Of a DNA stretch of 64,000 nucleotides, positions 9,269-64,000 are shown one piece after another. Made by a program: the position numbers and the translations under genes. The notes under the pieces were generated by a model. That model was not told where the DNA came from and ran no database searches. It worked only from the letters and a program-made list of their open reading frames with translations. The stretch is from Bacilli bacterium (GTDB lineage Bacteria > Bacillota_I > Bacilli_A > RFN20 > CAG-826). Location of the stretch: contig JAVWAV010000002.1 in assembly GCA_036649855.1 (NCBI GenBank), positions 3,186-67,185 on the forward strand. The letters are read 5' to 3'. Position 1 is the first letter of the stretch; each line of letters opens with the position of its first letter.

Positions 9269-9269
9269 A

Positions 9270-10475: not shown

Positions 10476-10562
10476 AGTTTAATTATAATATTTTAACTAG
10501 CAATAATAAAGTAGTAAATGAAATATTTATTAGTATATTATTAGTCGTTTTTTAGTTGTTTT

Positions 10563-10787
10563 TTAGTAATAAAATGATTTTTGAGTAAATACATGCATTT
10601 GTGATGCGACATCAATATTGACTTTTTTCTCAATTACTTTTGCTTCTTCTTTTATTGCTAAATTTTCAATCCCAAAAGGAATAATAAATAGACTTGCTGC
10701 AGAACCAAAAATACAAATTGCAATTAATCTGTTTGTTAGTCTAAAAAGAAGTGTTTTTTTACCATTTCTATTAAGTTTATCTTTCAT
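10563..10787 (-). CDS. Small bitopic membrane protein, possibly FtsL/DivIC-like
   Basis: 74 aa with one TM segment (IAICIFGSAASLFIIPF) followed by a charged helical region. It sits between rsmH and ftsA, where ftsL sits in dcw clusters. Confidence 0.35.
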   Translation of the reverse strand: MKDKLNRNGKKTLLFRLTNRLIAICIFGSAASLFIIPFGIENLAIKEEAKVIEKKVNIDVASQMHVFTQKSFYY

Positions 10788-10804
10788 ATTTTTCCTCCAT
10801 GTTT

Positions 10805-11734: not shown

Positions 11735-11736
11735 AT

Positions 11737-12153
11737 TTATATTTCCTCAGCTTCTACGTCGAAGTTTTCATCATTATTTTTAGAGTATTCAATCCATTTA
11801 TTTCTATTCCAGATTTCTATATGATCTCCGGCACCAATTATTGTTAATTCTTTTGATATCTCATATTTATTTACGATATATGTTGGTAATGTTATTCTTC
11901 CTAAATTGTCTATTTCTATTTCAACGGTGGAAGATAAAATAGTTCTTACATATGCTCTTGATTTTGATTTATTAAATGATAATTCTTCAAGTTTGGTAAC
12001 CATTTTTTCATACGATGCAGAATCAAAAACACTCACACATCCGTCAAACCCTTTCATTAGGTATATTTTATCACCTAATAATAAACGAAGTTTGACTGGC
12101 ATCATGAGACGGTTCTTATTGTCTAGCACATGCTCGTATGTTCCATAAAACAT
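11737..12153 (-). CDS. mraZ: Transcriptional regulator MraZ
   Basis: MFYGTYEHVLDNKNRLMMPVKLR... with tandem MraZ half-domains. The track start 12162 is a GTG. The ATG at 12153 is preceded by AAGGAG at 8-nt spacing. Confidence 0.85.
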   Translation of the reverse strand: MFYGTYEHVLDNKNRLMMPVKLRLLLGDKIYLMKGFDGCVSVFDSASYEKMVTKLEELSFNKSKSRAYVRTILSSTVEIEIDNLGRITLPTYIVNKYEISKELTIIGAGDHIEIWNRNKWIEYSKNNDENFDVEAEEI

Positions 12154-12156
12154 AAT

Positions 12157-12196
12157 TACCACTCCTTACCACTTTCTACCACTTATCTATATTATA
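12157..12196 (-). promoter_or_regulatory. mraZ promoter -10 (TATAAT) plus three direct GTGGTA repeats at 10-bp phasing (putative MraZ operator)
   Basis: Minus strand reads TTTATAATatagataaGTGGTAgaaaGTGGTAaggaGTGGTAattATG. The repeats are at plus 12157-62, 12167-72 and 12177-82; the -10 is at 12191-12196. Confidence 0.5.
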
Positions 12197-19484: not shown

Positions 19485-19973
19485 CTAATATTTATTATTT
19501 TGACGTTCGTAATTTACATTTAGTTTAGAAATATATCCATTCATTACATCTTCTTTTGTTAAATTAAGTAAAGTAGATAAACCAAGGAATTCTTTAAAAA
19601 GAGAAATATAATCCTCGTAATCTTCGCTAATTCTAAATGAATCAAGTAATGAATAAACATACAAAAATTGTTCATTAATATTACTACAAGTATTAATTTC
19701 TTCAATTTCGTTAAATCTATAATTAAATGATAATCCTAATGATAAAATAAAATGTAATCCATCAGCAAATTCATCAACAATTCGACATTTTTCTTCAGCT
19801 GGTTTAAGAGACCGAAATTTAAATGAACGGGTTGCATTTGCCAACTCACCTAATTCAACAAGAAAAGCCAAAAATCTTCTGCCTTTCGTTGTTTCGTATG
19901 TAACATTGTGTAATTTTAAGATTTCTTTATCGAGCTTTTCTTGTTCAATAAATAGCTTCTCAAGATTAAACAT
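19485..19973 (-). CDS. Dimeric dUTPase-like protein (all-alpha NTP-pyrophosphatase, YncF-like)
   Basis: 162 aa with the pattern ...RFLAFLVELGELAN.... It overlaps the glgP stop by 8 nt. Confidence 0.45.
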   Translation of the reverse strand: MFNLEKLFIEQEKLDKEILKLHNVTYETTKGRRFLAFLVELGELANATRSFKFRSLKPAEEKCRIVDEFADGLHFILSLGLSFNYRFNEIEEINTCSNINEQFLYVYSLLDSFRISEDYEDYISLFKEFLGLSTLLNLTKEDVMNGYISKLNVNYERQNNKY

Positions 19974-22392
19974 CTTTAGCCTCTAATTTTTCAAGATGCC
20001 AAATATCCTTGACATATTGTTCGATAGTACGATCACTTGAGAAATATCCACTATTAGCAATATTATGAATACATGCTTTTGCCCATGCTGATTTATTAGC
20101 ATAAAGAGCTTGAACTTTTTCATGTGCTTCAACGTAACCATGGAAATCTTTAAGTAAGAAGAATTGATCATTTCTAGACATTAATTCATCGAAAATAATC
20201 TTAAATCTTTCTTGATTATCTTGTGCCCATGGTCCATTAAATAAACTATTAACAACTTTATTGATAACTGGATCGGTATTATATAAATCCCATGGATTAT
20301 ATGTTCCTGTATTTTCATATGTTTCTACTTCTTTTGCAGTTAAACCAAAGATAATAGCATTTTCTTTTCCAGCTTTTTCAACAATTTCAATATTTGCGCC
20401 GTCCATTGTTCCAAGAGTAATTGCACCATTCATCATAAACTTCATATTAGAAGTTCCTGAAGCTTCATAACCTGCAGTTGAAATTTGTTCACTAACATCA
20501 GCTGCTGGAATTATTTTTTCAGCAAGACTTACACCATAGTTTTCAACAAATACAATCTTAATAAATTTTGAAACTTCTGGATCATTATTAACATAAGAAG
20601 CAACTGAATTAATAAGTTCGATTACTTTTTTAGCGAATAAGTAGGATGGAGCGGCTTTGGCTCCAAAAATAAATGTTGTAGGAATCATTTCAAAATTAGG
20701 ATTTTCTTTAATCTTGTTATATAAATACATAATGTGCAAAATATTCATTAATTGACGTTTATATGCATGTAGTCTTTTTACTTGAACATCGAATATTGAT
20801 GATGGATCAATTTCAATTCCGTACGTATTTTTAACAAATTCGGCAAAATTTCTTTTGTTTTCATGTTTAATTCTTAAAACACGATTTTGTACAACAGCAT
20901 TATCAGCAAATTTATCAAAATCTACTAATTTTTCACTATTTAAAATCCATTCATCTCCAATTTTATCGGTTACAAAGCTTGATAATTTTGGATTAGAGTA
21001 TAAGAACCATCTACGATGGGTGATTCCATTAGTCTTATTGTTAAATTTACGTGGAAATATTTTATAGAAAGATGAAAATGTTGTTGTCTCTAAAATTCTA
21101 GTATGAATTGCAGCAACTCCATTTATCGAAAAACCGGCATAAATTGCCATATTTGCCATATAAACTTGGCCATCTTTAATAATTGCCATATCACGTTTTG
21201 AATTATCATCTACTTTTTTCTCAGATAAGAAAATGTTAAATCTTCTATTAATTTCTTCAATAATCATATAAATTCTTGGTAATAAACGTTGTAATTGGAA
21301 AGTTGGCCATTTTTCAAGAGCTTCAGCTAAAATAGTGTGATTTGTATAGGCAATAGATTTTGTCACTTGTTCCCATGCAAAGTCCCATCCACATCCATAA
21401 CCATCCATCATAATTCTCATCATTTCAGGAATTGCTAAAATTGGATGAGTGTCATTTAATTGGAAAACATATTTTTCAGCAAATCCTTCAAGATTACCAT
21501 GAACGCCATAATAGCTTCTAATTGCACTTTGAAGTCCTGAACTAACGAGGAAATATTCTTGTTTTAAACGTAATAATTTTCCTGCTTCATTTGAATCATC
21601 TGGATATAAACTATGACAAATCATTTTTATTTCGCTTAAATAGTCTTCAAATGACATATTTGTTGGTAAATTGTTGCTACTTGGTTCACTTGACCAAAGT
21701 CTTAAAGTATTGGCTAATTTATTATGATATCCAACAACTGAAATATCATATGGCATAGCTTGAACAGATAAAGAATCAACTAGACGTACAGCAAAAGAAC
21801 CATCTGGTCTAATATATGTTTCAGGTCTACCATAAAATTGAACTTCAACAGCGTGTTTTGGTTTTCTTACTTCCCAAACATTTCCATTAGTTAACCATTG
21901 ATCTGGCAATTCGGTTTGTTTTCCATCAACAAATTTTTGACGGAAAAAACCATATTCATATCTTAAACAGTTACCGTGTCCTGGATAGCCAAGTGAAGCA
22001 ATAGAATCAAGAAAACAAGCAGCTAAACGACCTAATCCGCCATTTCCTAATCCTTCATCGCTTTCTTCATCCTCTAATTCATTTATATCAATATCAAGAT
22101 CAGCAAGACCGTTTTTACATACCTCGTAAATTCCAAGGTTTTGCATATTGTTTACAAGCAATCTTCCCATTAAGAATTCCATTGAAAAATAAATCAATTG
22201 CTTTTTTTCACTTTGAACGATTGAACTTCTAGTGTGTCTCCAGTTAATACCAGCATAATCACGGACTAATTCGCCCAATACATCATATCTTTCACTAATG
22301 TGGGATTCTTTTACAGTTAGGCCATATTTTTCAATAAGTCTATTTTTAAAAGCTTCTTCAAATTTTTCCTTTGTTTTGAATGTGTCGAACAT
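19966..22392 (-). CDS. glgP: Alpha-glucan (glycogen/maltodextrin) phosphorylase, GT35
   Basis: 808 aa with pyridoxal-phosphate signature EASGTSNMKFMMNGA. Confidence 0.9.
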   Translation of the reverse strand: MFDTFKTKEKFEEAFKNRLIEKYGLTVKESHISERYDVLGELVRDYAGINWRHTRSSIVQSEKKQLIYFSMEFLMGRLLVNNMQNLGIYEVCKNGLADLDIDINELEDEESDEGLGNGGLGRLAACFLDSIASLGYPGHGNCLRYEYGFFRQKFVDGKQTELPDQWLTNGNVWEVRKPKHAVEVQFYGRPETYIRPDGSFAVRLVDSLSVQAMPYDISVVGYHNKLANTLRLWSSEPSSNNLPTNMSFEDYLSEIKMICHSLYPDDSNEAGKLLRLKQEYFLVSSGLQSAIRSYYGVHGNLEGFAEKYVFQLNDTHPILAIPEMMRIMMDGYGCGWDFAWEQVTKSIAYTNHTILAEALEKWPTFQLQRLLPRIYMIIEEINRRFNIFLSEKKVDDNSKRDMAIIKDGQVYMANMAIYAGFSINGVAAIHTRILETTTFSSFYKIFPRKFNNKTNGITHRRWFLYSNPKLSSFVTDKIGDEWILNSEKLVDFDKFADNAVVQNRVLRIKHENKRNFAEFVKNTYGIEIDPSSIFDVQVKRLHAYKRQLMNILHIMYLYNKIKENPNFEMIPTTFIFGAKAAPSYLFAKKVIELINSVASYVNNDPEVSKFIKIVFVENYGVSLAEKIIPAADVSEQISTAGYEASGTSNMKFMMNGAITLGTMDGANIEIVEKAGKENAIIFGLTAKEVETYENTGTYNPWDLYNTDPVINKVVNSLFNGPWAQDNQERFKIIFDELMSRNDQFFLLKDFHGYVEAHEKVQALYANKSAWAKACIHNIANSGYFSSDRTIEQYVKDIWHLEKLEAKDV

Positions 22393-22394
22393 AT

Positions 22395-24254
22395 TTAATT
22401 CTCCTTTTTAAATTTAAAAATCATAGCAGCATATGCGCTAATTTTAATTGTAATATGAAATGGTTTATCTTCAGGCCCACCCTGTCCTGTGTGAATTTCT
22501 TCACCGTTATATTGGTTGTTTCCACCATAAACATTTTTATCAGAATTTAATAATTCAACATAAGTTCCTTGACGATTAATGCCAATATCAAAGTACTCGT
22601 AAAAATTTGGAGTCATGTTAAAAACAAATACTAAATGACTATCGCCATATCTTCTTTCAAAGGCAAAAATTGATTGATCGGCATTGTTTGCCATTAACCA
22701 ATTGAAATGCACTGAATTATATTCTTCTTTATTCATAGCATCTTCTGAACGATAAATAAGATTTAAATCACGTAATAAGCGCGAAACAGAATCATGTTTT
22801 GGAAATTGTTTAAGATTCCATGGCAACGATTTTTTCTCATCCCATTCATCCCATGAACCAAGTTCGTTGCCCATAAAATTGAGCTTCTTTCCAGGATGGG
22901 CAAACATATAAGTATATAAATTTCTCAATAAAGCAAATTTAGTATCGTAATTTCCCCACATTTTATTAAGAATGGTTCCTTTACCGTGAACTACTTCATC
23001 ATGTGATAAAGGTAATAAAAAGTTCTCACTGTAAAAATATGCCATTGAGAAAGTCAATTTATAGTGATCATATTTTTTATAAATAGGATCTAATTGATAA
23101 TATTTAAGCGTGTCATTCATCCGTCCTAAATCCCATTTATAGTCAAAATCTAATCCATTTGCCCATAAAGGATGGGTTGTTCCTAAATAATCGGTGCTAT
23201 CTTCAGCAATCATCATAACGGTTGGATGTTCACTGTGTATTTTTCCATTAAGTCTTTTTACAAACTCAACGCCACCATCCCGCGTTCCTCTTGCTTTATT
23301 TCCATCATAGAAAATAATATTACTAACAGCATCAACTCTTATTCCGTCAAAATGGAAATATGAGAGAAAATAATTCATAGAACTCATTAAAAATGAACGA
23401 ACAGGATCTTTGCCTAAATCAAATAAGCAACTACCCCATTGTGAATAAGCTCGGTCGCCATCGCCTTCGTACATATGTGAACCATTAAAATCGATTAAAC
23501 CATATGGATCAATTGCAAAATGAACAGGAGCAAAATCAATAATAACTCCAATTCCTGCTTGATGTAAACGATCAACAAATGACATTAATTGCATTGGATT
23601 GCCATATCTTGAATCTATACTAAAAAATCCAGTTGCTTGATAACCCCATGATCCATCAAATGGATATTGACAAACTGGCATCAATTCAACGTGAGTAAAA
23701 CCATTTTCCTTTATATATGGAATTAACTTTTCAGCAACTTCTTCATATGATAAAAATCTTCCATCATTTTGACCAAACCATGAGCCAACATGCATTTCAT
23801 AAATTGACATTGCAGAATCAAATTCTCTTGTACGTTGCTCTAAAAATGGTTTATCATGCCAAATAAATCCATCAATATCAAATAATCTACTGCTAGAATT
23901 AGGTCTAATCTCTGAGAAAAAAGCAAAAGGATCTGCTTTATCAACGTATTGACCACGCATATTTTTAAAATGAAATTTATATGCTTGATAATTGCTAAGA
24001 TTAGGAATAAATAATTCAAATATTCCTGCTTCATCAATACAATTCATCTTGTGGACACCAGGATCCCAAGAGTTAAATTCTCCAATAACAGAGACGTCCG
24101 AAACTAATGGAGCATACAAACGAAAAATTACACCTTTCGTTGCAACTAATTTGCGACCAACTTTAGTTTTTATTTCGCAAAAATGAGCTCCAAAATAAGA
24201 GAAAGCATCGATTGATTGTCCATTTAAGTAATCATAAACAAGTCCATATGCCAT
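22395..24254 (-). CDS. glgB: 1,4-alpha-glucan branching enzyme (GH13)
   Basis: Catalytic region DGIRVDAVS ... MMIAEDST ... PLSHDEVVHGKG. The track start 24293 is a TTG. The ATG at 24254 (MAYGLVYDY) is preceded by AAGAGG at 8 nt. Confidence 0.85.
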   Translation of the reverse strand: MAYGLVYDYLNGQSIDAFSYFGAHFCEIKTKVGRKLVATKGVIFRLYAPLVSDVSVIGEFNSWDPGVHKMNCIDEAGIFELFIPNLSNYQAYKFHFKNMRGQYVDKADPFAFFSEIRPNSSSRLFDIDGFIWHDKPFLEQRTREFDSAMSIYEMHVGSWFGQNDGRFLSYEEVAEKLIPYIKENGFTHVELMPVCQYPFDGSWGYQATGFFSIDSRYGNPMQLMSFVDRLHQAGIGVIIDFAPVHFAIDPYGLIDFNGSHMYEGDGDRAYSQWGSCLFDLGKDPVRSFLMSSMNYFLSYFHFDGIRVDAVSNIIFYDGNKARGTRDGGVEFVKRLNGKIHSEHPTVMMIAEDSTDYLGTTHPLWANGLDFDYKWDLGRMNDTLKYYQLDPIYKKYDHYKLTFSMAYFYSENFLLPLSHDEVVHGKGTILNKMWGNYDTKFALLRNLYTYMFAHPGKKLNFMGNELGSWDEWDEKKSLPWNLKQFPKHDSVSRLLRDLNLIYRSEDAMNKEEYNSVHFNWLMANNADQSIFAFERRYGDSHLVFVFNMTPNFYEYFDIGINRQGTYVELLNSDKNVYGGNNQYNGEEIHTGQGGPEDKPFHITIKISAYAAMIFKFKKEN

Positions 24255-24497
24255 AATTAATACCTCTTGTTCTTTATAAATTATTATAACCAAATTTTAT
24301 CCAATTAACCATACTAAATAATATATTTTCATCATTTTTTTCTAAGATTCAACTTTTATTATAATATTAAACAAATATGGATAAAATTTGGCGCTTTTAA
24401 GACATATAAAAAATAAATCTCATTTATATTGCGTACTTGTCTTTAATTATTATGTTAAAAAATGTATAATTAAAGAGCAATTTTAAGGAGAAAAATT

Positions 24498-26808: not shown

Positions 26809-29800
26809 ATGAATTATGTACCACTACACATCAATACCGCATACTCATTTTTATCAAGTTCTGTATTAATTGACAAATTGATTTTAAAACTGAAAAAAAT
26901 AAGTATCGATAAATGCGGTATTGCTGATAATGGCACATTGTTTTCATGGCCATCTTTTGATGAAAAATGCCATGAAAACAAAATTAGTCCGCTCTTTGCA
27001 CTTGATGTAAATATTGAAGGAAATTTATTCACGATTTACGCTTCAAATGAAGATGATTATAAACAAATAATTAAAATATCTGAAATAACTGCTAATAGAG
27101 CAGATTTTTCAATAACTTATGATGAAATAAAACATCTTTCTTCTTCTTTGGTTGCCATTATTTCAACCGAATCTGGAAATATATTTTTTAATACTTCTAT
27201 TGATGAAATTAATGAAAATCTAAAAAAATATATTAGATTATTTTCAACTCTTTACGTTGGAATTGAATCTTACTCATTTAATAAGGATAGAGTTAAAATA
27301 ATCAGAGAATTTTTAACTAAATATCCACATGATTTTTTAGCATTTCCACATGTAAAATATCTCAAACCAGAAGATGCTATTTCGCTTAAAATTCTTGATT
27401 GTATCAAAAAAATTGAACATCTCGATTTTGATGCTGAAATTGAAGAATCAGGTGAATATTATTTAAAAGATGAAACAGAAATTAATAAAGATTATTTAGA
27501 AAACGAATTATTAAATACTATTATTTTCTCTAATAAATTTGATTTTAAAATTAATATAAAACGTGGCGAACTTTTAAAATTTAACAACGAAGTTTCGAAA
27601 ACTAGTCTTGCTAGTTTAGTAAACCAGGGGCTTATTGAACTAAAATTAGAGAATAAAAAAGAATACACTTCACGTCTTGATTATGAACTAAATATTATCG
27701 ATAAAATGGGCTATAATGACTACTTTTTAATTGTCCAAGATTATGTGAATTTTGCAAGAAAAAATGGAATTTTAGTTGGTCCTGGAAGAGGCAGTGCTGC
27801 TGGGTCTCTTGTTTCGTATTTATTAAATATTACAAAAGTAGATCCACTTAAATATGATCTGTTATTTGAAAGATTTTTAAATACTGAACGTATTTCTATG
27901 CCTGATATTGATATTGACTTTGAAGACTCAAGACGCGAAGAAATTGTTACCTATCTTAAAGAAAAATATGGTTATGATCGTGTTGCAAACATCGTCACTA
28001 TTCAAACAATTCAAGCAAAACAATCATTGCGTGATTTAGCAAGAGTTTATAGCTTAAATTCTCGTGATATAGACGATCTTTGCAAACTTTTAACGAATAA
28101 TAAATTTTCGCTTATGCAATCATATAAAAATATTGAAGTTTTTAGAAATAAAATAAATGCCGATGAATATTATCAAAAAATCTTCAAACTTGCTCTTAAA
28201 ATAGAAAATTGTCCACGTCAACACGGACTTCACGCAGCAGGAATTATTTTAAACAACAAAGAATTAGAAACATCTCTTCCTATATTTTATGATGAAAATA
28301 TTAAATCAAATATTACACAATATGAAATGGGATTTTTAGAAAAACAAGGTTTTCTAAAAATGGATTTATTGGGATTAACAAATCTTTCTACGATTCAATT
28401 TATTTTGCAACTTATTAAGCGCAATCGCAATATTGATTTAGCGTTTGATGATATACCAATTGATGATCCTATTATATTTGATGGACTAATAAATAAACTG
28501 ATGACAAATGGAATATTTCAACTCGAATCTGCAGGCATGAATAACGCAATTGCTCAAGTTAAACCAACATGTTTTAACGATATCACTGCAATTCTCGCAT
28601 TATTTAGACCAGGACCAATGGCAAACATTCCTATTTATGCTGAAAGAAAAAATAAACATACAAAGATTTCTTATATTGTTCCTGAATTAGAACCTATCTT
28701 AAAACCAACTTATGGCATCATTATTTATCAAGAACAAATAATGCAAATTGCTCAAAAGATTGCTGGTTTTTCACTTTCAGAAGCAGATATATTACGTAAA
28801 GCAATTTCAAAGAAAAATGCTTCACAAATGGAATCTCTTAAAGCTAAATTTATCAAAGGCGCTATCGCAAACAATTACACTAACGAAAAAGCTAAAGAGT
28901 TATATTTGCTCATTGAAAAATTTGCACTTTACGGCTTTAATAAATCACACTCTGTTGCTTATGCAATGGTTTCAACAAAGATGGCATATTTAAAAGCTAA
29001 ATATCCAGAAGAATTTTATATTGCTATATTAAGCAGTGTAGTTGGTACAAATGATGCAAAATTCAAAAATTACTTAACAGAAATGAGTAAGAGAAACATT
29101 AATATTTCTACTCCTTCTATCAATAAATCACAAAAAATATTTTCTATTAATAATGGAAAGCTTATTATGCCATTAAGCACAATTAAAGGCTTAATGTCTA
29201 CAACTACAGATGCAATTCTTTATGAAAGAACTCAAAACGGTGAATTTAAAGACTTTTATGGTTTTGTTTATCGTATGTTTGATTATACTTTAACAGAACC
29301 AACACTTGAAAAACTTATAAAATCAGGTTGTTTTGATGAGTTTACAACAAATAGAGCAGCATTACTTGCCGCTATAAAAGATATATTACGCGCTGTCTCA
29401 TTGGAAAAGAAAACTAAGGGTCAATGTTCGATTTTTGGAGATAATTTTACGTATAATTTAGATCTTGTCGAAGATATAATGCAAAGAAGCAAAGACGAAA
29501 ATGATTTATTAGGAATAATGGTTACTAATAATCCACTTGCAACCATTAAAGCTGAAAATAAAAATATAATATCAACGCCTATCAGTGAATTCGTTGACTC
29601 AATGAACGTTACTTTATTTGCATTTATTGAATCAAAAAAAATAATCACTACAAAATCGACAAATAAACAAATGGCTTTTTTAACGGTATTTGATGAATTT
29701 AATACTAAAATTGATGTAACTATATTTCCTAATCTATATACAACTAGTGCAGAAATTATTTCTAAAAATAATATAGTTTTAATTAAAGGACATACTGAAG

Positions 29801-29886
29801 TCGGTAATCGTGGAATTCAATTAATCGCAGATGAGATTAAACTTATTAAAGAGGATAAAAATGATGAAAAAAATTATAATAATTGA
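26809..29886 (+). CDS. dnaE: DNA polymerase III alpha subunit, DnaE-type
   Basis: 1025 aa with N-terminal PHP domain and polymerase core (GIIIYQEQIMQIA, LYGFNKSHSVAYA). Confidence 0.9.
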   Translation: MNYVPLHINTAYSFLSSSVLIDKLILKLKKISIDKCGIADNGTLFSWPSFDEKCHENKISPLFALDVNIEGNLFTIYASNEDDYKQIIKISEITANRADFSITYDEIKHLSSSLVAIISTESGNIFFNTSIDEINENLKKYIRLFSTLYVGIESYSFNKDRVKIIREFLTKYPHDFLAFPHVKYLKPEDAISLKILDCIKKIEHLDFDAEIEESGEYYLKDETEINKDYLENELLNTIIFSNKFDFKINIKRGELLKFNNEVSKTSLASLVNQGLIELKLENKKEYTSRLDYELNIIDKMGYNDYFLIVQDYVNFARKNGILVGPGRGSAAGSLVSYLLNITKVDPLKYDLLFERFLNTERISMPDIDIDFEDSRREEIVTYLKEKYGYDRVANIVTIQTIQAKQSLRDLARVYSLNSRDIDDLCKLLTNNKFSLMQSYKNIEVFRNKINADEYYQKIFKLALKIENCPRQHGLHAAGIILNNKELETSLPIFYDENIKSNITQYEMGFLEKQGFLKMDLLGLTNLSTIQFILQLIKRNRNIDLAFDDIPIDDPIIFDGLINKLMTNGIFQLESAGMNNAIAQVKPTCFNDITAILALFRPGPMANIPIYAERKNKHTKISYIVPELEPILKPTYGIIIYQEQIMQIAQKIAGFSLSEADILRKAISKKNASQMESLKAKFIKGAIANNYTNEKAKELYLLIEKFALYGFNKSHSVAYAMVSTKMAYLKAKYPEEFYIAILSSVVGTNDAKFKNYLTEMSKRNINISTPSINKSQKIFSINNGKLIMPLSTIKGLMSTTTDAILYERTQNGEFKDFYGFVYRMFDYTLTEPTLEKLIKSGCFDEFTTNRAALLAAIKDILRAVSLEKKTKGQCSIFGDNFTYNLDLVEDIMQRSKDENDLLGIMVTNNPLATIKAENKNIISTPISEFVDSMNVTLFAFIESKKIITTKSTNKQMAFLTVFDEFNTKIDVTIFPNLYTTSAEIISKNNIVLIKGHTEVGNRGIQLIADEIKLIKEDKNDEKNYNN

Positions 29887-32434
29887 TGGATATAGTTTGT
29901 TCTTTAGAGCCTATTATGCAACTGCATATCGTGGTGAAGATACAATTCTTAAAACATCAAACAATACACCAATTAATGCTATATTTACATTTGGAAAAAT
30001 GGTTTTACCATTAATAAAATCCCTTAATGAAAATGACTCAATTTGTGTTGCTCTTGATACTGGCGGAAAAACTTTTAGACACGATATTATGCCAGAATAT
30101 AAAGGCCAACGAAATGAAACTCCAGAATCTCTTATCGTTCAAATGCCGATATTACGTGAATTTTTAGATGCATTAAACATACCTCACGTTGAAATGATTG
30201 GATATGAAGCCGATGATGTGGCAGGAAGTGTCGCTTATTTTGCTAAAAAAGAGGGATATAGTGTCGAACTTTACACTTCAGATAAAGACTATTTACAATT
30301 AGTTGATACCAATGTTAACGTTTGTCTAATAAAAAAAGGCATGAGTGATATTCAAAAGATTACTACTGATAATTTTTATGAAACATTCAACTTTTATCCA
30401 AATCAATTAATTGATTATAAAGGTTTAAGAGGAGATTCTTCTGATAATCTTAAAGGAATCCCAGGTATCGGAGAAAAAACTGCAATTGATTTATTAAACA
30501 AATATAAATCAATTGAAGATATTTATGAACATATCGATGAATTAAAAGGCAAAATGAAAGATAATTTACTTGAATACAAAACTACCGGTCTTTTATGCAA
30601 AGAAATGGCAACAATTGTTCAAGATTTAAAATTGCCTCGTAACACCGAAGGCTTTTTATACGAAGGATATAACGTTCAAGACGCCATTTCTTTTATAAAT
30701 AAATATGAATTAAAATCGCTTGGAAACGATCTTACTAAAATCAAAAGTGTCAAACAAGAATATGATGCTGATAATGAAATTCGTTACGAAATTGTTGAAC
30801 ATATTCCTCAATATAAATCAAATTGTTTTGGTATCGCTATTGATTACGTTGGCATTAATTATCACCTTTCAACAATTAACGGTTTTGCCATATATTTAGA
30901 TAAAAAAAGTATATATATTAAAGCAGAAGATGCTTTAAAAGACGAAAATTTTATTTCTTTATTAAGTTCTTCATCTTCTTCTATTTGTTGCTATGACTAT
31001 AAAGAAATAAAATATCAATTAAATAAACTTAATGTCGAAATTGCAAGTCCTGTAATTGATTTATCAATAGCAAGATATTTATTAAATTCTAATATAATAG
31101 CTGATACGCAATCGACATTTATGTTTTTTAAAAAACAAATTGATACTGAAAAAGATACAATCTATACAGCACTTCAAATTGCAAAATATTCATATACATT
31201 AAAAAACGATGTCTTAGAGCAATTAAAAGCTATAGATGCTTTAGAATTATATACAAAAATGGAACTTCCATTAGCTAGTGTATTAAGTGATATTGAATTA
31301 GAAGGTTTTCCGCTTCATAAGGAAGAATTGGAAGAATTACGTATTATAATTGAAGAAAAAAAAGACAAATTAGAACAAGAAATTTATAAAAGAATTGGCT
31401 ATGAATTCAATATTTCTTCTCCTACCCAAGTTGGAAAAGTTCTATTCGATGATTTGCAATTAAATGATACAAAAAAACCAACTACTTCTGTTGAATATTT
31501 AAAGCACATAAGTTATAAAGATCCAGTAATTCAACTTATTTTAGACTATAGGAAATATGCAAAAATTATATCAACTTATATCAATGGATTAGAAAATCAA
31601 ATTTATGAAGACGATAAAATACATTGTATTTATAATCAAACATTAACCACTACTGGTAGATTGAGTTCATCTGAACCTAATATGCAAAATATTTCAATTC
31701 GTGATGACGAGGCAAAAATGGTAAGAAAAGCATTTTATTACAAAAATAATGATTATGTTATTTTATCATATGACTATTCACAAATAGAATTACGTTTATT
31801 AGCACATATGTCTAAATGTAAAAAATTACTTGAAGCATTTAATAATAATGAAGATATTCACACATCGACTGCTAAAAATATTTTTAAAGATGTTGAAATA
31901 ACTCCTAATTTAAGAAGAAAAGCAAAAGCTGTCAATTTTGGAATCATCTATGGTATTTCAGATTATGGTTTAAAAGAACAAATTGATTGTACAATGGGTG
32001 AAGCTAAAGAAATTATTAAAAAGTTTTATGAGGTATACCCAGAAATCCATCAATATTCAAATAAATTAGTTAAGGATTTAGAAGAAAATTTATATGTTTC
32101 AACTCTTTTTAATCGTCGCAGATATATTGAAGAAATCAATGATTCAAATTTTAACAAGAGAGAATTTGCTAAAAGAGCTGCAATGAACGCACCAATTCAA
32201 GGTTCTGCAGCTGATCTTATTAAAATGGCAATGATTAAAATACACGATTTATTAAAATCATATGATTCAAAAATAATATGTCAAATCCACGATGAATTGA
32301 TTTTTAAAATAAATATTAAAGAAATTGATATATTATCTACTAAAATAAGTGATATTATGGAAAATGTTATTTCATTAGACGTTAAATTAAAAGTTGATGG
32401 AGGATATGCCACTAGTTGGTATGATATTAAATAA
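29861..32434 (+). CDS. polA: DNA polymerase I
   Basis: 5'-3' exonuclease N-terminus (IIIDGYSLFFRAYYA) and Pol A motifs (DYSQIELRLLAH, motif C QIHDELIF). The track start 29831 lies inside the dnaE 3' end; the ATG at 29861 has AAGAGG at 6 nt. Confidence 0.9.
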   Translation: MMKKIIIIDGYSLFFRAYYATAYRGEDTILKTSNNTPINAIFTFGKMVLPLIKSLNENDSICVALDTGGKTFRHDIMPEYKGQRNETPESLIVQMPILREFLDALNIPHVEMIGYEADDVAGSVAYFAKKEGYSVELYTSDKDYLQLVDTNVNVCLIKKGMSDIQKITTDNFYETFNFYPNQLIDYKGLRGDSSDNLKGIPGIGEKTAIDLLNKYKSIEDIYEHIDELKGKMKDNLLEYKTTGLLCKEMATIVQDLKLPRNTEGFLYEGYNVQDAISFINKYELKSLGNDLTKIKSVKQEYDADNEIRYEIVEHIPQYKSNCFGIAIDYVGINYHLSTINGFAIYLDKKSIYIKAEDALKDENFISLLSSSSSSICCYDYKEIKYQLNKLNVEIASPVIDLSIARYLLNSNIIADTQSTFMFFKKQIDTEKDTIYTALQIAKYSYTLKNDVLEQLKAIDALELYTKMELPLASVLSDIELEGFPLHKEELEELRIIIEEKKDKLEQEIYKRIGYEFNISSPTQVGKVLFDDLQLNDTKKPTTSVEYLKHISYKDPVIQLILDYRKYAKIISTYINGLENQIYEDDKIHCIYNQTLTTTGRLSSSEPNMQNISIRDDEAKMVRKAFYYKNNDYVILSYDYSQIELRLLAHMSKCKKLLEAFNNNEDIHTSTAKNIFKDVEITPNLRRKAKAVNFGIIYGISDYGLKEQIDCTMGEAKEIIKKFYEVYPEIHQYSNKLVKDLEENLYVSTLFNRRRYIEEINDSNFNKREFAKRAAMNAPIQGSAADLIKMAMIKIHDLLKSYDSKIICQIHDELIFKINIKEIDILSTKISDIMENVISLDVKLKVDGGYATSWYDIK

Positions 32435-32436
32435 AT

Positions 32437-33828
32437 ATGCCAGAATTACCTGAAGTTGAAACAGTTGTAGGCATTCTAAAACCTTTACTTATAAATAAGA
32501 AAATAATTAATGTTAAAATCTTCTATGAAAGAATGATTTTATCTGATTTAAACGACTTTAAAACAAAACTTAAAAACCAAACATTTTTAAATATCACTCG
32601 CAAAGGAAAGTTTATAATTTTTCATCTTAGCAATAATTTGGTACTAATTTCTCACCTTCGTATGGAAGGAAAATATGCAATTAAGAGAATTAATGAAAGT
32701 AATCCACTTCATACACATATCGAACTAACACTTGATAATGATGAAAAACTGCTATATTACGATACAAGAAAATTTGGAATTATGAAATTAACAACTGAGG
32801 AAGAATATCTTATAACAAAACCAATTTCTGAATTGGGAATCGAACCAATGGATGTTAATGAAATCAATATTTTGCAAATTTATAAAAAACTAAATTGTAA
32901 AAAACCAATTAAAGAACTTCTTCTAGACCAATCGATTATGTGTGGAATTGGCAATATTTATGCTGATGAAATTTGCTATGCCACTCATCTTAATCCTTTC
33001 ACTCTTGGAAACACATTATCCAGATTAAAATATGACGAAATAATTAAACAAGCATCATCTATTCTTAAACAAGCAATCAAAAATGGCGGCTCAACAATAA
33101 AATCTTATCATCCTTCAGAAGGAGTTGATGGACGTTTTCAAACTTTGTTACACGCTTATGGAAAAGCTGGAACACCGTGTCCAATTTGTGGAACAATTTT
33201 CCATAAAACTACATTAGGTGGACGTGGAACTACATTTTGTCCAAATTGTCAAAAAGATCAATCATTATGTAAAGCCATTGCAATAACAGGACCGATTGGA
33301 TCTGGCAAATCACTTGCTTTAAGTGCTTTTAAAGAACATGGTTATGAAATCTTGGATTGTGATCAGATTGTTAGAGAAATATATAAAGATCCAGAGTGTA
33401 TTAAAAAAGTAGTTAAAATATTAGGTTCTAACATTCTAGAAGATGAAAAATTAAATACTAAAAAAATGCGTTCATTAATTGAACAAAATGAAATCTTACA
33501 ACAAAAATTAGAGCTCTATGTTTTTCCTCTTGTGGAACAAGTCCTTATTAATAAAATAAAAAACAACGATAAAATCGTTGTTGAGATTCAATTTTTGGCT
33601 AAATCACATCTAAATTACTTATTTAAGCATGTTATTTTATTAGAAGCAAAAAATGAAAAATTACTAGAACATATCCTTCCAAGAAACTATAAAAATCCTC
33701 AGGCTGCAATTGATTTGTATTTCAAAAACAATACAATTAATAGTTGTGAAAGCGATATAATAATTCAAAATAATGGTACAAAAGAAGAATTTTTAGAAAA
33801 AATAAATAGTGTTATTAATAAATTTTAA
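32437..33828 (+). CDS. Fusion ORF: formamidopyrimidine-DNA glycosylase (Fpg/MutM, about aa 1-272) joined in frame to dephospho-CoA kinase (CoaE, about aa 278-463)
   Basis: N-terminus PELPEVETV, an H2TH region and zinc finger CPICG...CPNCQ. This is followed directly by AIAITGPIGSGKS (CoaE P-loop) and a CoaE-like C-terminus, with no stop codon or start codon between them. Confidence 0.75.
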   Translation: MPELPEVETVVGILKPLLINKKIINVKIFYERMILSDLNDFKTKLKNQTFLNITRKGKFIIFHLSNNLVLISHLRMEGKYAIKRINESNPLHTHIELTLDNDEKLLYYDTRKFGIMKLTTEEEYLITKPISELGIEPMDVNEINILQIYKKLNCKKPIKELLLDQSIMCGIGNIYADEICYATHLNPFTLGNTLSRLKYDEIIKQASSILKQAIKNGGSTIKSYHPSEGVDGRFQTLLHAYGKAGTPCPICGTIFHKTTLGGRGTTFCPNCQKDQSLCKAIAITGPIGSGKSLALSAFKEHGYEILDCDQIVREIYKDPECIKKVVKILGSNILEDEKLNTKKMRSLIEQNEILQQKLELYVFPLVEQVLINKIKNNDKIVVEIQFLAKSHLNYLFKHVILLEAKNEKLLEHILPRNYKNPQAAIDLYFKNNTINSCESDIIIQNNGTKEEFLEKINSVINKF

Positions 33829-58184: not shown

Positions 58185-58420
58185 TCCTTTAAAATAAAAA
58201 AACGCCTACTATAAGGACGTTCTTAACGCGGTACCACCTTATTTTATTTACTATTGTAAATACTCTTAATAAGCTTATTAACGCTAAGCACGGTTAAGCA
58301 TTGAACTGAGATTTAAATATCAATGTTTGTTTTCATCACCCACAAACTTTCTATTTTTTATTAATATTTAATTATTGTTCCTAACGTTATTATTATAGTA
58401 ATAAATTACCTTATTTTCAA
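58185..58420 (-). promoter_or_regulatory. leuS promoter plus T-box leader (Leu, specifier CUC)
   Basis: Promoter TTGAAA(58415-20) -17- TATAAT(58392-97) on the minus strand. AG-box/GGTGATGAAAAC, specifier CUC-A (plus 58308-10), T-box core AAGGTGGTACCGCG (plus 58227-42), then terminator plus U7. Confidence 0.7.
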
Positions 58421-58478
58421 CAAAAAGGGTGCATTAATCAAAATTACTTAGTTGTTCTTCCTTTCTTTACTTTAAAAA

Positions 58479-58508
58479 GAAAACTACTAATTCAAATTAG
58501 TAGTTTTC
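58479..58508 (-). terminator. Intrinsic terminator after the SMC-like operon (13-bp perfect stem)
   Basis: GAAAACTACTAAT tcaa ATTAGTAGTTTTC, followed on the minus strand by TTTTTAAAG. Confidence 0.6.
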
Positions 58509-58519
58509 TAGTAGTTATT

Positions 58520-61500
58520 TTAGTTTTCTTTAGCGTAAAGTCTGATTGAAGAGGATGATTTGCCATGAAGAACAACCAGTGTTTCATCAACAGATTCACT
58601 AATATCTCCAATTTTTTCACTTGGAGCACTAATAATTGCTTGCAGTCCAAACTTACGTAAAAGTTTTATCGATTCTTTAATACGATTACGGTCCATTTTA
58701 CTAAATGCTTCATCAAAAACAATAAGGCGTATTGTATTTCCTAATTCGCTATTATCATTAACGTGATAAAGTTGAGCAAATGATGCAAGAACAGCAATAT
58801 AGAAAGGTGTTTGTGTTTCTCCACCTGACTTCTTTTTAATCATTTTGCTTAAACGTTGACTGACGCCTTCTTTATTAGTAACTAGTAAATCAAAATCTAA
58901 ATAAGTACGATAATCTGTAAATATATCAATGTTTGCTAAAGCATCATTTGATTGTTTGCCATCATTTACAATGATTGATTTAAATAAATCAGCCATAACA
59001 TCGCTATATTTATTAATGAATTCATCTTGTTTTTCCGTTGTTTGGAGTAACAAGTCATCTTTAAACATATCATAATATCTTCTATAAGTTGGATTTGGTT
59101 TAATAGTAAATTTATAGGTATCATTTCCAAATGTTGAATTAGCTAATGCCATATTTAAGTCAGAAATTTGATCTTCAACATTTTCAATTTGATTTCTTAA
59201 TTTAGAAATAAATTCATTTTTAAATTGTTCTGTTGCTTTATTGTAAGAATCACGTATTTTCTCACGATATAAAGGTAATTTTACATCTCTAATATCTACT
59301 AATTCATTATCAAAATCATCATTATTTTCACTTTCGATATTATATGATAAATGATATTCATCAGTATAAGATTTACGTAATTTGCGAACTTGACCTAATA
59401 TATTACTCGAAATATATTGAATACGTCCAATCGTAATTGAATATTCTTTGTGAATTTCAAGTAAACTCTTGCTTTCAAGTTCAAGACGGAATTTTGGCAA
59501 GCCAAATTCCGAAACAAATTTACCATCGTAATTTGTTTGAAGCGACTTTTCTTTTTCAGAAAGTGTAACGCTTTCGTTTTTGATTTTTTCTTCAGTAAGA
59601 TTTTTGATCGATTCAATAATCGAACCTTTTTCAATACGAAGATTATTTGTTTCTTTATCAATATCAGTTAAATCTTCTTCAACTGAAGTAATACGTTTAT
59701 CAAGCGAATCGATTTGTAAGGTATCATGTTTTGATAGTTCTTCTTCAACGTATTTTAAAGAATCTTTTAATCCTTTTAATTCAAGTATTTTAGTAGCTGA
59801 AGTAATTATTGCATTTATTTCATTAGTATTAATTATTTCAAGTTGATTAGCAGAATTAATTACTTTATATAAATCTTTAAAAGTAGATATTGACATAATA
59901 TTTGTAGCAATTTCATCTTTCTTTTGCGAAATTTGTTCATTACTAATTTTACGACCAATATATGAGGTTGCATATTGTTGTGGTCTAATCGTAGAAAGAG
60001 CAAAATTTCTATAAATATCACAACTTGCAGTAATTCCATTTCCAGATTCTCTTGCTTCGTGAATATTTTCGCATTTAATTAATCTACCAAGTAAGAAATT
60101 AGCATAAGCACGTGCTCCTGAATGATCCGTAATTATTTCTTCTGCTAAACTATATTCTTGAAAACCAAAACGTTTTTCAATAATCTTTTCTTGATCCACT
60201 AAAGAAATACCATAGTAACGATATTTATATAATAAGTTTTTTAAAATCTTATAAGCTTCTTCATAATATTTTGGTTCAACAAAAAGGTTGAATTTTTGAT
60301 TAAATAAGAAACCTTCAATAGCGTTTGACCATTTTTTATCGTTAATATCAATTAAATCGGCAAAAAATTCAACTGAAATTTCTCTTCCAAATTGACTTTT
60401 TAATTGAGAACAAAGTTCGTTCTTAATTGAAGTTAACGAGGAATCATAAGATTTAATTCCTTTTCCAAGTGAATCTAAATCTACTTTTAAATGTGAAGTA
60501 GTAATTTCAAGATCACGAATGGTTCGAGCAAATGAGACAGAAAGAGCAGATATTTCACTTTTAAAAGTAGAAAGTGCTTCTCTCCAACCGGTTAATATTT
60601 CAGAGTTAATTGTTCTTAACCCGCCTTTAGTGGTTTCTAAAAGTTCCATGGATTTTGATCTAACTGCTTCAATTTGTGTTTGAAGTTCAACTATTTCACG
60701 GACCTTCTCGCCTGGAAGTAAATCTTTATTTACACTTTCAAAAGATCTTGAAAGTGACGTTGCAGCTGAAATATAAAGATTAGCATAATTCTCAATTGAA
60801 GAAATTGTATCTTTTTCAATGCTTGTGAGGTCAGAAATTTTTTCATGTAATTCATCTTTTTCTTCGTAAAGCTGATTAGTTAGTCGATATGTATCACTAT
60901 TTGCTTTATCGTTAATTAATTGAATTTTTTTGTTATTTAAACGTATTTTATTAAATTCGGCTTCGTTTAATTCAACATCAATTTCACTCAACCTTTTCTT
61001 AAATTGCTCAAGTTGTGAATAATATGAAGATAAACGATCAACAGAGATTTGATGATTAACTTTTTCAATAACATAAGAACAAAGCTTTATATCTTTAGTA
61101 GAATCTAAATATTTTTGATATAGATTTTGAATTTCTTCTAAACGTACTATTCTTTCTCCCATCAAAGTAGCTTCATGTTCAAGTTGTTGATATTGAGCAA
61201 TATTTTCTTGCATTGCACCAATTTCAATATTCATTTGAGGATCACAAACATATTCAGTAATAAAAGTTGTGATATCAGTAATTGGAGTAAACGAAGTGGC
61301 TTTTTTAAGCAAAGAAAAATACTTATCTTTTAAGTTTCCACATTTTCTTTTTAATAAATCTTGAAATTGTTTGTTACTATCGGTAAATTTATATTTTTCT
61401 TTATAATTAGTTTGAAAAAACACTGATAAATCTTTAAAGGACATTGGTATATTATTTGTAATAAATTCATTCTCAGGAATTTTATCTTCTAATAAAAAGA

Positions 61501-61879
61501 AACGGTGTTCTTCATGTCCATCTTCAAATGAATCAAAAACACATCCAAGCGTAAATGAATCATCAGCAATATCGTCATAAAATTCAAGAGCAATATAACT
61601 TGTAAATCTACCATCTCTTAAATATTTAAATCCACCATCTTCGGTATCACCTAATTCACCTCTAAGATAACCTTTAAGAGTTCTATTAGATTTATCCATT
61701 GCAGCTTTATTAAAATATCTTCCACTAGTATCACCTAGTAAAACAACTTGCAAAGCGTCAATTAATGTCGATTTTCCTGAAGCATTGACACCAGTTAAAA
61801 AGACAATAGGTTTCATGTCAATTGTTTCATTCCAGAAATAATGCCAATTAATAACTTTTATTTTAGCTAATGTTTTCAT
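58520..61879 (-). CDS. SMC/MukB-family ATPase, JetC/MksB-like (third gene of the operon)
   Basis: 1119 aa. N-terminal Walker A FLTGVNASGKSTLIDAL, about 800 aa largely coiled coil, C-terminal signature KSGGETQTP, Walker B LIVFDEAFSKMD, then D-loop. Confidence 0.75.
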   Translation of the reverse strand: MKTLAKIKVINWHYFWNETIDMKPIVFLTGVNASGKSTLIDALQVVLLGDTSGRYFNKAAMDKSNRTLKGYLRGELGDTEDGGFKYLRDGRFTSYIALEFYDDIADDSFTLGCVFDSFEDGHEEHRFFLLEDKIPENEFITNNIPMSFKDLSVFFQTNYKEKYKFTDSNKQFQDLLKRKCGNLKDKYFSLLKKATSFTPITDITTFITEYVCDPQMNIEIGAMQENIAQYQQLEHEATLMGERIVRLEEIQNLYQKYLDSTKDIKLCSYVIEKVNHQISVDRLSSYYSQLEQFKKRLSEIDVELNEAEFNKIRLNNKKIQLINDKANSDTYRLTNQLYEEKDELHEKISDLTSIEKDTISSIENYANLYISAATSLSRSFESVNKDLLPGEKVREIVELQTQIEAVRSKSMELLETTKGGLRTINSEILTGWREALSTFKSEISALSVSFARTIRDLEITTSHLKVDLDSLGKGIKSYDSSLTSIKNELCSQLKSQFGREISVEFFADLIDINDKKWSNAIEGFLFNQKFNLFVEPKYYEEAYKILKNLLYKYRYYGISLVDQEKIIEKRFGFQEYSLAEEIITDHSGARAYANFLLGRLIKCENIHEARESGNGITASCDIYRNFALSTIRPQQYATSYIGRKISNEQISQKKDEIATNIMSISTFKDLYKVINSANQLEIINTNEINAIITSATKILELKGLKDSLKYVEEELSKHDTLQIDSLDKRITSVEEDLTDIDKETNNLRIEKGSIIESIKNLTEEKIKNESVTLSEKEKSLQTNYDGKFVSEFGLPKFRLELESKSLLEIHKEYSITIGRIQYISSNILGQVRKLRKSYTDEYHLSYNIESENNDDFDNELVDIRDVKLPLYREKIRDSYNKATEQFKNEFISKLRNQIENVEDQISDLNMALANSTFGNDTYKFTIKPNPTYRRYYDMFKDDLLLQTTEKQDEFINKYSDVMADLFKSIIVNDGKQSNDALANIDIFTDYRTYLDFDLLVTNKEGVSQRLSKMIKKKSGGETQTPFYIAVLASFAQLYHVNDNSELGNTIRLIVFDEAFSKMDRNRIKESIKLLRKFGLQAIISAPSEKIGDISESVDETLVVLHGKSSSSIRLYAKEN

Positions 61880-62530
61880 TTAAAAATCTCCTTCTATTTG
61901 GTTGAGATTAATATTTTTAGATTCTTCATTAATTTTATCAATTGTATCGCTCATTGCTTGAATTTTAGTGCTATCAATTGCGTAAACAATTGATGGCAAA
62001 ATGTAAAATGTTACATTTCCTTCGTCATAAGTTCCGCTAACTTTCGTAATAATATTGTGATTTGCTAAAAATCTTAAAGATTTGCCAACTAAACGACCAG
62101 TAATTTTCTTGTTTGGAAACGAAACTGAAAAATCTATCATCGATTTAATAAGCATTGGAGTGCTTAAATAAACTCCTTGAGAGTTTGAACTAGAGTCAGA
62201 TTTTTCATTTTCGTAAATAAGACGTAAAACATAAAGAATAAGAGATGTTTCACGATCAATTTTAATTCTGTTGTCGCTATCTTTATTAAATAAAGTAATA
62301 ACACCAAGTAAAGAATCTTTTTCAATTGAATATCCCATATAACTCAAATATTCATCCGCAACATCAAAATGTCTATCGAGAAATCTGTAGTAAGAATTAA
62401 TTTTAATAATCTTTTCTTTGCTATCAAAGATGTCACGAACCACAAAACTATGTGATAAAAGGTGATTAATTGATAATGCAAAATCAGATTTATCGCTACT
62501 ATTTAGTGCTAGATAATTTTCATCAAACAT
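61880..62530 (-). CDS. JetB/MksE-like (MukE-class) small subunit candidate
   Basis: 216 aa ORF lying between the kleisin-sized ORF and the SMC-like ATPase. The assignment is by operon position and size; no diagnostic motif could be verified by eye. Confidence 0.4.
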   Translation of the reverse strand: MFDENYLALNSSDKSDFALSINHLLSHSFVVRDIFDSKEKIIKINSYYRFLDRHFDVADEYLSYMGYSIEKDSLLGVITLFNKDSDNRIKIDRETSLILYVLRLIYENEKSDSSSNSQGVYLSTPMLIKSMIDFSVSFPNKKITGRLVGKSLRFLANHNIITKVSGTYDEGNVTFYILPSIVYAIDSTKIQAMSDTIDKINEESKNINLNQIEGDF

Positions 62531-62532
62531 AA

Positions 62533-63963
62533 CTATGCTCCTTTCCTTTTAAATATTAACTTCGGTAATATATATCCATCATTTTTAACTTTTTCTTTGC
62601 TATCGTAATTTACTATATAAAAGCAATTAGGATCATCTTTTTTAATAGTAGCTAATATAAGAAGAATAAACGCTTCATAAGTTGGCAATGGTATTTCTTC
62701 AATAAAAATCTCGTCTTCATTTCCAAATACATTTTGCATAAACTCATATATTCGATCATCAGTATATAATCCGCTTAATTGAGAAAGAAAATTCTCAATC
62801 ATAATATCTCCAGCAAAATTAGGATCTACTATTGATAACGGCATTTGATCACCAATGTATTTACGTAATATTGGTAACGATACTGATTCAGAATTAATAA
62901 ATCCATTCTCATAAATAGAAATACTATCTTGCATTGATGATAAAATGCTTCTTAAATTTCTCGTATTATGAGCATTTTTTGCAATCGAAGACAAAATATT
63001 TTCTAAATTGCCCTTAACTGATTTATCAGTATTATTTAAATAAAGAATTTTATTTGCGCTTGATTTTGTATAGTCACGATGGCGATGATCGATATCATCA
63101 ATCATCCCGTTTAAAGTGTCAAAAGTATCGCAAATAAAATTCACTTTTTCAATAATGGTTTTTTCTACATCTTTTGGGTTAATATCACCAGAAGAAAAAA
63201 CCAATCCTTGTTTAATAAGTAAATTCTTTTTTTCGCTATCTTTTATCCAACTGTTTAAAATATTTATGATTGGGCGACGAAATCTTGTAACACTATCGAA
63301 CGTCTTTATTGGATGATAAAGACGATCACTAACTAGTTCTTTATAATTATCAAAATAGGAATGAAGTATTTCATTTGAAGTAAATATCTTATTTAATCTA
63401 TTTTGATAAATTCTAATTGAGTGAGAAAGAGTTATTAAATCAACACGTAATTTTTTCGTATTTTCGTATGCTCTACATAAAACAGCATACATAAATTCAT
63501 CTTTTGATGTATCTTCTAATAATAATTCGCTATAAGTGCTATGAACTAAAGAGGAATATTCTTCATTAGATTCATTTGTTATATCAAACAACGTTTTAAT
63601 CATTCTAATTGAGTAGGTTGGTAAAACAATATATTCATCAAAAGTTTCAGGATTAAGTTCTAGTTCTAACCATCCAGTTTCTTCAAGATGTTTAACAATA
63701 AAAGAAGCTTTTGATGCAACACTAAAAGAAGTAAACTCACTATCGCTGTCTTCTTCGTCTTCAAGACTGAATAATTCAATTTCGTGAATACCCTTTTCTT
63801 TAAGAAAACGAACAAACTCATCTCTTTTAACATTTAAATCGTTATCATTGATCAATGTATATAAAAGAATTAAGCAGCCTGCATATATGTTTTTATTCTT
63901 TCCATTTAATATAGAGAAAAATTTTTCCGGTAGTATTTCAAATAAATTCATTCTTGTTTCCAA
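62533..63963 (-). CDS. JetA/MksF-like (kleisin-class) subunit candidate; first gene of the operon
   Basis: 476 aa ORF immediately upstream of the 216-aa ORF, abutting it. Size and order match JetA/MksF. The operon's upstream region is cut by the window end. Confidence 0.4.
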   Translation of the reverse strand: METRMNLFEILPEKFFSILNGKNKNIYAGCLILLYTLINDNDLNVKRDEFVRFLKEKGIHEIELFSLEDEEDSDSEFTSFSVASKASFIVKHLEETGWLELELNPETFDEYIVLPTYSIRMIKTLFDITNESNEEYSSLVHSTYSELLLEDTSKDEFMYAVLCRAYENTKKLRVDLITLSHSIRIYQNRLNKIFTSNEILHSYFDNYKELVSDRLYHPIKTFDSVTRFRRPIINILNSWIKDSEKKNLLIKQGLVFSSGDINPKDVEKTIIEKVNFICDTFDTLNGMIDDIDHRHRDYTKSSANKILYLNNTDKSVKGNLENILSSIAKNAHNTRNLRSILSSMQDSISIYENGFINSESVSLPILRKYIGDQMPLSIVDPNFAGDIMIENFLSQLSGLYTDDRIYEFMQNVFGNEDEIFIEEIPLPTYEAFILLILATIKKDDPNCFYIVNYDSKEKVKNDGYILPKLIFKRKGA

Positions 63964-64000
63964 TATTAAAATTATAACAAATAACTAAACTTATTCATAT

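Follow-up and report, generated by a model that had tools for sequence, protein, structure and literature searches.

A Wadjet-type jetABC operon without jetD at a conserved housekeeping locus of small-genome Bacilli

We analyzed a stretch of 64,000 nucleotides (nt) from a Bacilli bacterium (GenBank assembly GCA_036649855.1, contig JAVWAV010000002.1, positions 3,186 to 67,185 of the forward strand), referred to here as the window, and focused on jetABC, an operon near its end that encodes the three core subunits of a type I Wadjet complex. An initial annotation had described an operon of three genes for proteins of 476, 216 and 1119 amino acids (aa), and all three open reading frames (ORFs) are found in that order on the minus strand. 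The genes, and the signals that surround them, are these:

62533 to 63951, minus strand: jetA, 472 aa, MukF-like kleisin (476 aa in the ORF list, which starts it at a TTG at 63963)
61880 to 62530, minus strand: jetB, 216 aa, MukE-like KITE subunit
58520 to 61879, minus strand: jetC, 1119 aa, MukB-like SMC ATPase
63973 to 63981, minus strand: candidate extended -10 element of jetA, TGTTATAAT, a consensus match only, read from the sequence
58474 to 58509, minus strand: intrinsic terminator 3' of jetC, with a 14-bp stem, a 4-nt loop and a U run
58210 to 58393, minus strand: T-box leader of leuS (Rfam RF00230), the downstream boundary, outside the system

Gene callers on identical public contigs place the start of jetA at the ATG at 63951 (472 aa), and TGTTATAAT lies about 20 nt 5' of this codon. 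The genes are packed as closely as had been described, with a gap of 2 nt between jetA and jetB and with jetB and jetC abutting. The order of jetC, a strong terminator and then the leuS T-box also holds. The terminator hairpin has a predicted folding energy (dG) of -15.7 kcal/mol and a z score of -4.35, with 0 of 200 shuffled RNA sequences folding as well. The T-box matches the full RF00230 model (E = 1.5e-14, 67.4 bits); the default Rfam scan had missed it because 67 bits lies below the gathering score of 93. A promoter-like TTGAAA-17-TATAAT site is located 5' of the T-box, after the jetC terminator.

The three genes encode a complete JetA-JetB-JetC complex of the type I Wadjet family. JetA matches the Pfam JetA kleisin family PF18982 (DUF5716) over model positions 2 to 434 of 434 (E = 5e-85), and JetB matches DUF4194 (E = 7e-13). 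Searches with the PADLOC profile hidden Markov models (HMMs) assign the proteins to JetA1 (E = 3e-119), JetB1 (E = 2e-59) and JetC1 (PDLC00519; E = 0, 1104 bits, residues 1 to 1118). These Pfam and full-length PADLOC matches, together with the folds of JetA and JetB described below, bear out the earlier assignment to JetA/MksF, JetB/MksE and JetC/MksB. JetC also contains the Pfam domains AAA_29 and SbcC_Walker_B, and the ATPase hallmarks previously noted in it could all be located, namely the P-loop (GVNASGKST, residues 30 to 38), the SGGE signature (residues 1018 to 1021) and the DE of Walker B (FDEAF, residues 1055 to 1059). At NCBI, some homologues bear the name "Wadjet anti-phage system protein JetA family protein."

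Comparison with solved structures gave a consistent picture. The significant PDB sequence matches of JetC are the JetC chains of 8dk1, 8as8, 8dk2 and 9qxt, and a JetC family profile additionally picked up a MukB head fragment, weakly (3euj, E = 7.5e-5). For JetA and JetB, divergence is so great that neither sequence nor profile searches find any match in the PDB, and the two are linked to MukF and to JetB/MukE, respectively, solely by fold. Using AlphaFold2 models built with database homologues, we found that JetB (predicted local distance difference test score [pLDDT] 82.6) most resembles the JetB chains 8dk1_F/E and 8as8_C, with JetB of P. aeruginosa and E. coli ranking first and MukE following (best E = 5e-6). 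The JetA model (pLDDT 74.5) most resembles the MukF chains 9gm7_C/D, 7nz2 and 3euh (best E = 6e-5). In Pfam searches of the operon, SMC_N reached 16 bits (cutoff 40) and the SMC hinge domain gave no match, and MukB_N reached 22 bits (cutoff 23), with no match to MukE or MukF. With SMC_N and MukB_N both below their cutoffs, membership in the canonical SMC and MukB families is excluded.

The gene that is missing is jetD, which encodes the Toprim nuclease of these systems (DUF3322/DUF2220). The initial annotation had reported no jetD after jetC, and this stands, as the terminator and the leuS T-box lie downstream and a JetD HMM finds no match in the window. It had also raised the possibility that the fourth gene lies upstream, beyond position 64000. 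Through an exact-protein look-up with JetC, we obtained contigs of the same organism (NCBI metagenome-assembled genomes labelled "Bacilli bacterium") of up to 252 kb. The DNA 5' of jetA beyond position 64000 encodes a 148-aa membrane protein, rpmB and an rpe-rsgA-prkC-prpC-rlmN block, and because this block rather than jetD is found upstream, that possibility is refuted. No jetD was found in 74 kb of this genome, comprising the 64-kb window and 10 kb upstream, using an unfiltered JetD HMM and the annotation of the flank. The gene for the 148-aa protein, divergent from jetA and just past window position 64000 (locus L001, 7380 to 7826, minus strand), is recognisable in many relatives; its product appears by eye to be a two-helix membrane protein and has a weak DUF6560 match (E = 1e-4).

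A one-genome-per-species scan with JetC gave 154 loci with relatives, the best 80 of which were retrieved. These are from 78 close relatives and 2 Clostridia outgroups, and 91 loci were fetched overall. By tblastn and the unfiltered JetD HMM, jetD is absent within 10 kb of jetABC in all 78 related species. Among the fetched loci, the HMM matched solely in the two outgroup loci; that JetD was detected in both of them indicates the reach of the search. No replacement effector adjoins jetC in the relatives' loci, where the conserved genes after jetC are glgC, glgD, glgA and then leuS.

JetC of the 78 related species is 48 to 96% identical to that of the window. Every retrieved locus that is long enough contains jetA, jetB and jetC at normal lengths, JetC is full length in every ORF that is not interrupted by a contig end, and none of the 79 JetC sequences has a disrupted Walker A, signature or Walker B motif. 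The gene order rpmB, jetABC, [glgC-glgD-glgA], leuS is conserved across the 78 species, and JetC homologues at 71%, 60% and 55% identity are found in the same gene context. The linkage of jetABC to glgCDA is kept even where the upstream flank has been rearranged. In the window species and its closest relatives glgCDA has been lost at this site, which explains why leuS directly follows jetABC in the window. Neither the same-organism contigs nor the relatives' loci have mobile-element or defence genes flanking jetABC. In a plasmid collection, the JetC homologues were all distant, with at most 29% identity, and were uninformative.

The organisms of this lineage are uncultured, small-genome gut Bacilli. 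Among the labels of the relatives' genomes are Bacilli, Mollicutes and Tenericutes bacterium, "Coprobacillus sp. CAG:826," Candidatus Onthovivens and Candidatus Alectryobacillus. Candidatus Alectryobacillus has been described in order RFN20, family CAG-826 (PMC8035907), a family predicted to be without peptidoglycan (PMC10868615). Going by the genome labels and these two papers, the group is most likely order RFN20, family CAG-826.

To compare the evolution of the operon with that of its neighbor leuS, we correlated pairwise protein distances across 43 species. Distances of the Jet proteins follow those of LeuS, with r = 0.85 for JetA, 0.71 for JetB and 0.83 for JetC (Mantel p = 0.001). In nine species pairs, the ratio of nonsynonymous to synonymous substitution rates (dN/dS) was 0.02 to 0.16 for each of jetA, jetB and jetC, indistinguishable from the 0.04 to 0.16 of leuS. 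jetABC is thus inherited vertically and is under strong purifying selection. The accessory, patchy distribution of defence genes is not what we see here, given the synteny in 78 species and the co-divergence with LeuS. The operon behaves as a set of core genes, neither as a mobile defence island nor as a decaying remnant, and its state is lineage-wide, syntenic and vertical rather than one genome's peculiarity. On the strength of this synteny, vertical descent and strong selection, a defence motor has apparently turned into a housekeeping DNA-organising machine.

The outgroup loci (L089 and L090) are from Clostridium sp. and Caldicoprobacter oshimai. Their JetC proteins are 40 to 41% identical to that of the window, and the best PADLOC sub-model for each of their JetA, JetB and JetC is also the best for its window counterpart. 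In both, a JetD1 gene stands immediately 3' of jetC (E = 1e-125 and 1e-134). Since jetD is present in these two nearest outgroups and absent near jetABC in the 78 relatives, the most parsimonious account is a loss of jetD from a type I JetABCD system in the ancestor of the Bacilli lineage studied here.

Taken together, the best reading is that the operon derives from Wadjet and encodes an MksBEF-like complex that has no nuclease and works on the chromosome. The initial annotation had weighed an MksBEF-type condensin, a JetD-less Wadjet variant or remnant, and a Wadjet with a displaced fourth gene, and the condensin is the best supported of the three. The loss of the JetD Toprim nuclease would date to the origin of this small-genome gut group (most likely order RFN20) or earlier, and jetABC would since then have descended vertically as a core operon that stays at one housekeeping locus. 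Judging from the homologous JetABC and MukBEF complexes that have been solved, JetC would dimerise via its hinge, JetA would bridge the JetC heads, thereby closing the ring, and would pair two motors, and JetB dimers would be bound to JetA. The intact JetC heads, by binding and hydrolysing ATP, would then drive DNA loading and loop extrusion, an activity that we infer for this JetABC by analogy. When a complete Wadjet stalls on a small circle, a JetD dimer is recruited and cuts the DNA (10.1101/2023.11.03.565488). With no JetD there would be no cleavage step, and the complex would be a nuclease-free DNA-folding motor. We favor a chromosomal, condensin-like role in organisation and segregation, and judge it somewhat more probable than all else combined, because P. 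aeruginosa MksBEF, which is without JetD, provides a published precedent and because the operon evolves in a core-gene-like manner.

Several points weigh against this reading. In the E. coli complex, a pocket of JetD takes up F919 of JetC, and the N-terminal helix of JetB is predicted to bind JetD. F954 of the window JetC (window approximately 59018 to 59020) aligns to F919 with a moderate posterior probability at the site, and this residue is phenylalanine in 75 of 79 JetC sequences and tyrosine in the other 4. The JetB N terminus (residues 1 to 9, window 62504 to 62530) is nearly invariant, with the pattern M1-F2-x-E4-x-F/Y6-x-K8-L9; its residue 2 has changed from W2 in the outgroups to F2 across the JetD-less lineage. 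Such conservation of JetD-contact elements would be expected if a docking partner persists. In addition, the relatives covered are the best 80 of 154, so we do not claim that the operon is universal in the order, and if smc-scpAB is also present, a second condensin in a genome of about 1 Mb would be puzzling. As to the contact elements, either they have a JetD-independent role or something still docks there. The latter option would fit a Wadjet that still cleaves plasmids, with JetD or another nuclease encoded elsewhere docking on the JetC larynx and the JetB N-terminal helix. F954 and the JetB motif are retained and are more conserved than the protein average, as such docking would predict. 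However, jetD ends the operon in the described systems that we considered and in the retrieved outgroups, and it was found neither in 74 kb of this genome nor within 10 kb of the operon in 78 species. Moreover, the phenylalanine at position 954 also occurs in the outgroups and so may simply be structural, and its alignment with E. coli F919 has just the moderate probability noted above. We therefore think it improbable that a nuclease acts in trans.

A different possibility is that JetABC defends without cutting, by loading on small circular DNA and compacting, silencing or mis-segregating it, much as extrachromosomal viral DNA is silenced by Smc5/6. The operon descends from a plasmid-sensing family, its closest relatives being JetD-containing Wadjets, and nuclease-free restriction by Smc5/6 is described in a review (PMC10586767). 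Intact motifs and strong selection would suit any active role, this one included, yet vertical inheritance, a fixed housekeeping locus and leuS-like dN/dS values are unusual for defence genes, which typically turn over fast, and the flanks are free of mobile-element and defence genes. We consider such a role unlikely, if still worth entertaining. That the operon is a Wadjet remnant decaying after the loss of jetD, as the initial annotation had suggested among its options, has the missing jetD in its favor but is contradicted by genes that are intact in 78 species, by a JetC that is full length unless it meets a contig end, by ATPase motifs intact in 79 of 79 sequences and by dN/dS values of 0.02 to 0.16, the same as for leuS. 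On the dN/dS and the intact ORFs we reject this option, which appears very improbable. Least credible of all is that jetC encodes some other SMC-like ATPase (RecN, SbcC/Rad50 or a canonical SMC) next to unrelated small ORFs. Its SbcC_Walker_B and AAA_29 domains are indeed common to SbcC/Rad50-like proteins, but the full-length JetC1 match, alongside subthreshold SMC_N and MukB_N scores, places the protein elsewhere, and the initial annotation, which had named such a classification as grounds for withdrawing its call, stands in this respect. The significant PDB matches are JetC apart from the weak one to the MukB head fragment, the partners are JetA and JetB by both HMM and fold, and there is no SbcD/Mre11 neighbor. 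RecN, SbcC and canonical SMC were accordingly rejected as identities of JetC on domain scores.

A motif and large-ORF search found no smc, scpA, scpB, rnc or ftsY in the window, the 10-kb extensions or the 91 fetched loci, and a search of papers and supplements turned up no smc, scpA or scpB calls for RFN20. One idea is that JetABC replaced Smc-ScpAB as the sole condensin, so that the kind of replacement seen with MukBEF would have occurred a second time, independently, in Firmicutes and near the defence ancestor. We regard this as doubtful, though a real possibility. In B. subtilis, the gene order is rpmB, then yloU-yloV...plsX...rnc-smc-ftsY. Compared with this order, jetABC, immediately next to rpmB, lies on the flank of that gene that should lead to smc, which is suggestive only. 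If these genomes lack smc-scpAB, the case would be a second condensin replacement event.

Among the closest known systems is type I Wadjet, JetABCD (also MksBEFG or EptABCD), as represented by E. coli GF4-3 (8as8), P. aeruginosa PA14 (8dk1-3) and C. glutamicum MksBEFG. The window operon shares with it the three core subunits, the gene order, the protein sizes, the PADLOC type I sub-models and the folds of JetB and JetA. It differs in lacking jetD both in the operon and up to 10 kb away, as do the 78 related species, in being inherited vertically at a housekeeping locus rather than patchily, and in its high divergence from the solved Wadjet complexes, with JetA and JetB undetectable in the PDB by sequence. 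Because an operon-encoded JetD is a defining feature of Wadjet, its absence means that the locus is not to be filed as Wadjet defence. In gene set, the operon is like MksBEF without MksG (P. aeruginosa MksBEF, mycobacterial MksB), a three-gene, Muk-like kleisin/KITE/SMC system with no nuclease at the locus. MksBEF systems in the literature are scattered, likely by horizontal transfer, whereas here the genes are fixed and co-diverge with the host across a reduced-genome lineage. The operon probably represents an independent loss of jetD within a Firmicutes type I subfamily and a new member of the MksBEF kind.

The operon has the same architecture as MukBEF, and JetA folds best to MukF while JetB folds also to MukE; unlike a MukBEF system, it has no membership by sequence, the likeness being at the level of fold only. 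MukBEF is a precedent for a Muk-type complex that became a housekeeping condensin and replaced Smc-ScpAB (PMC10586767). With Smc-ScpAB, the operon shares the organization of a KITE-based SMC complex that presumably extrudes loops, but there is no family-level similarity (SMC_N 16 versus 40, no hinge), and the partners are JetA and JetB. Field reviews have put forward Wadjet-like defence complexes, stripped of their nuclease, as the ancestors of MukBEF and MksBEF. Few examples support this idea, and this lineage offers a natural case in which the intermediate steps are visible: the nearest relatives keep jetD, and gut Bacilli predicted to be largely wall-less keep jetABC only, at a single locus and under selection that matches that on leuS. 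It thus provides a defined system for studying how an SMC motor that cuts plasmids is converted to housekeeping use, and it calls for caution in scoring jetABC matches in such genomes as "Wadjet defence."

The surroundings of the operon vary in detail among the relatives. In most of the loci L012 to L088, glgCDA follows jetC, and in some the gap between jetC and glgC is just 11 to 30 nt (L084, 12806 to 12817; L036, 13375 to 13405), so glgCDA may be co-transcribed with jetABC there. Between jetC and glgC, some relatives encode an additional membrane protein of roughly 300 aa (L014, 13421 to 14335; L050, 13430 to 14347; L061, 13397 to 14254); the one in L014, the sole one scanned with Pfam, is a DUF3137 protein. 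A YhhN-family membrane protein precedes leuS in some relatives. The window species and its closest relatives retain glgB and glgP, located at 19966 to 24293 in the window.

Elsewhere in the window, a division and cell-wall cluster at 8150 to 12162 on the minus strand (L091, 507 to 4510) comprises mraZ, rsmH, a 74-aa ORF, ftsA and ftsZ, and no mur, pbp or ftsW genes were found in it. Such a reduced cluster would fit an organism deficient in peptidoglycan, which is the prediction for CAG-826. The plus-strand ORFs of dnaE (26809 to 29886) and polA (29831 to 32434) overlap by 56 nt as listed, and the true start of polA is probably a later ATG. A 463-aa ORF at 32437 to 33828 on the plus strand fuses Fpg/MutM (PF01149, H2TH, zinc finger) to CoaE (PF01121), which are encoded by separate genes in most bacteria.

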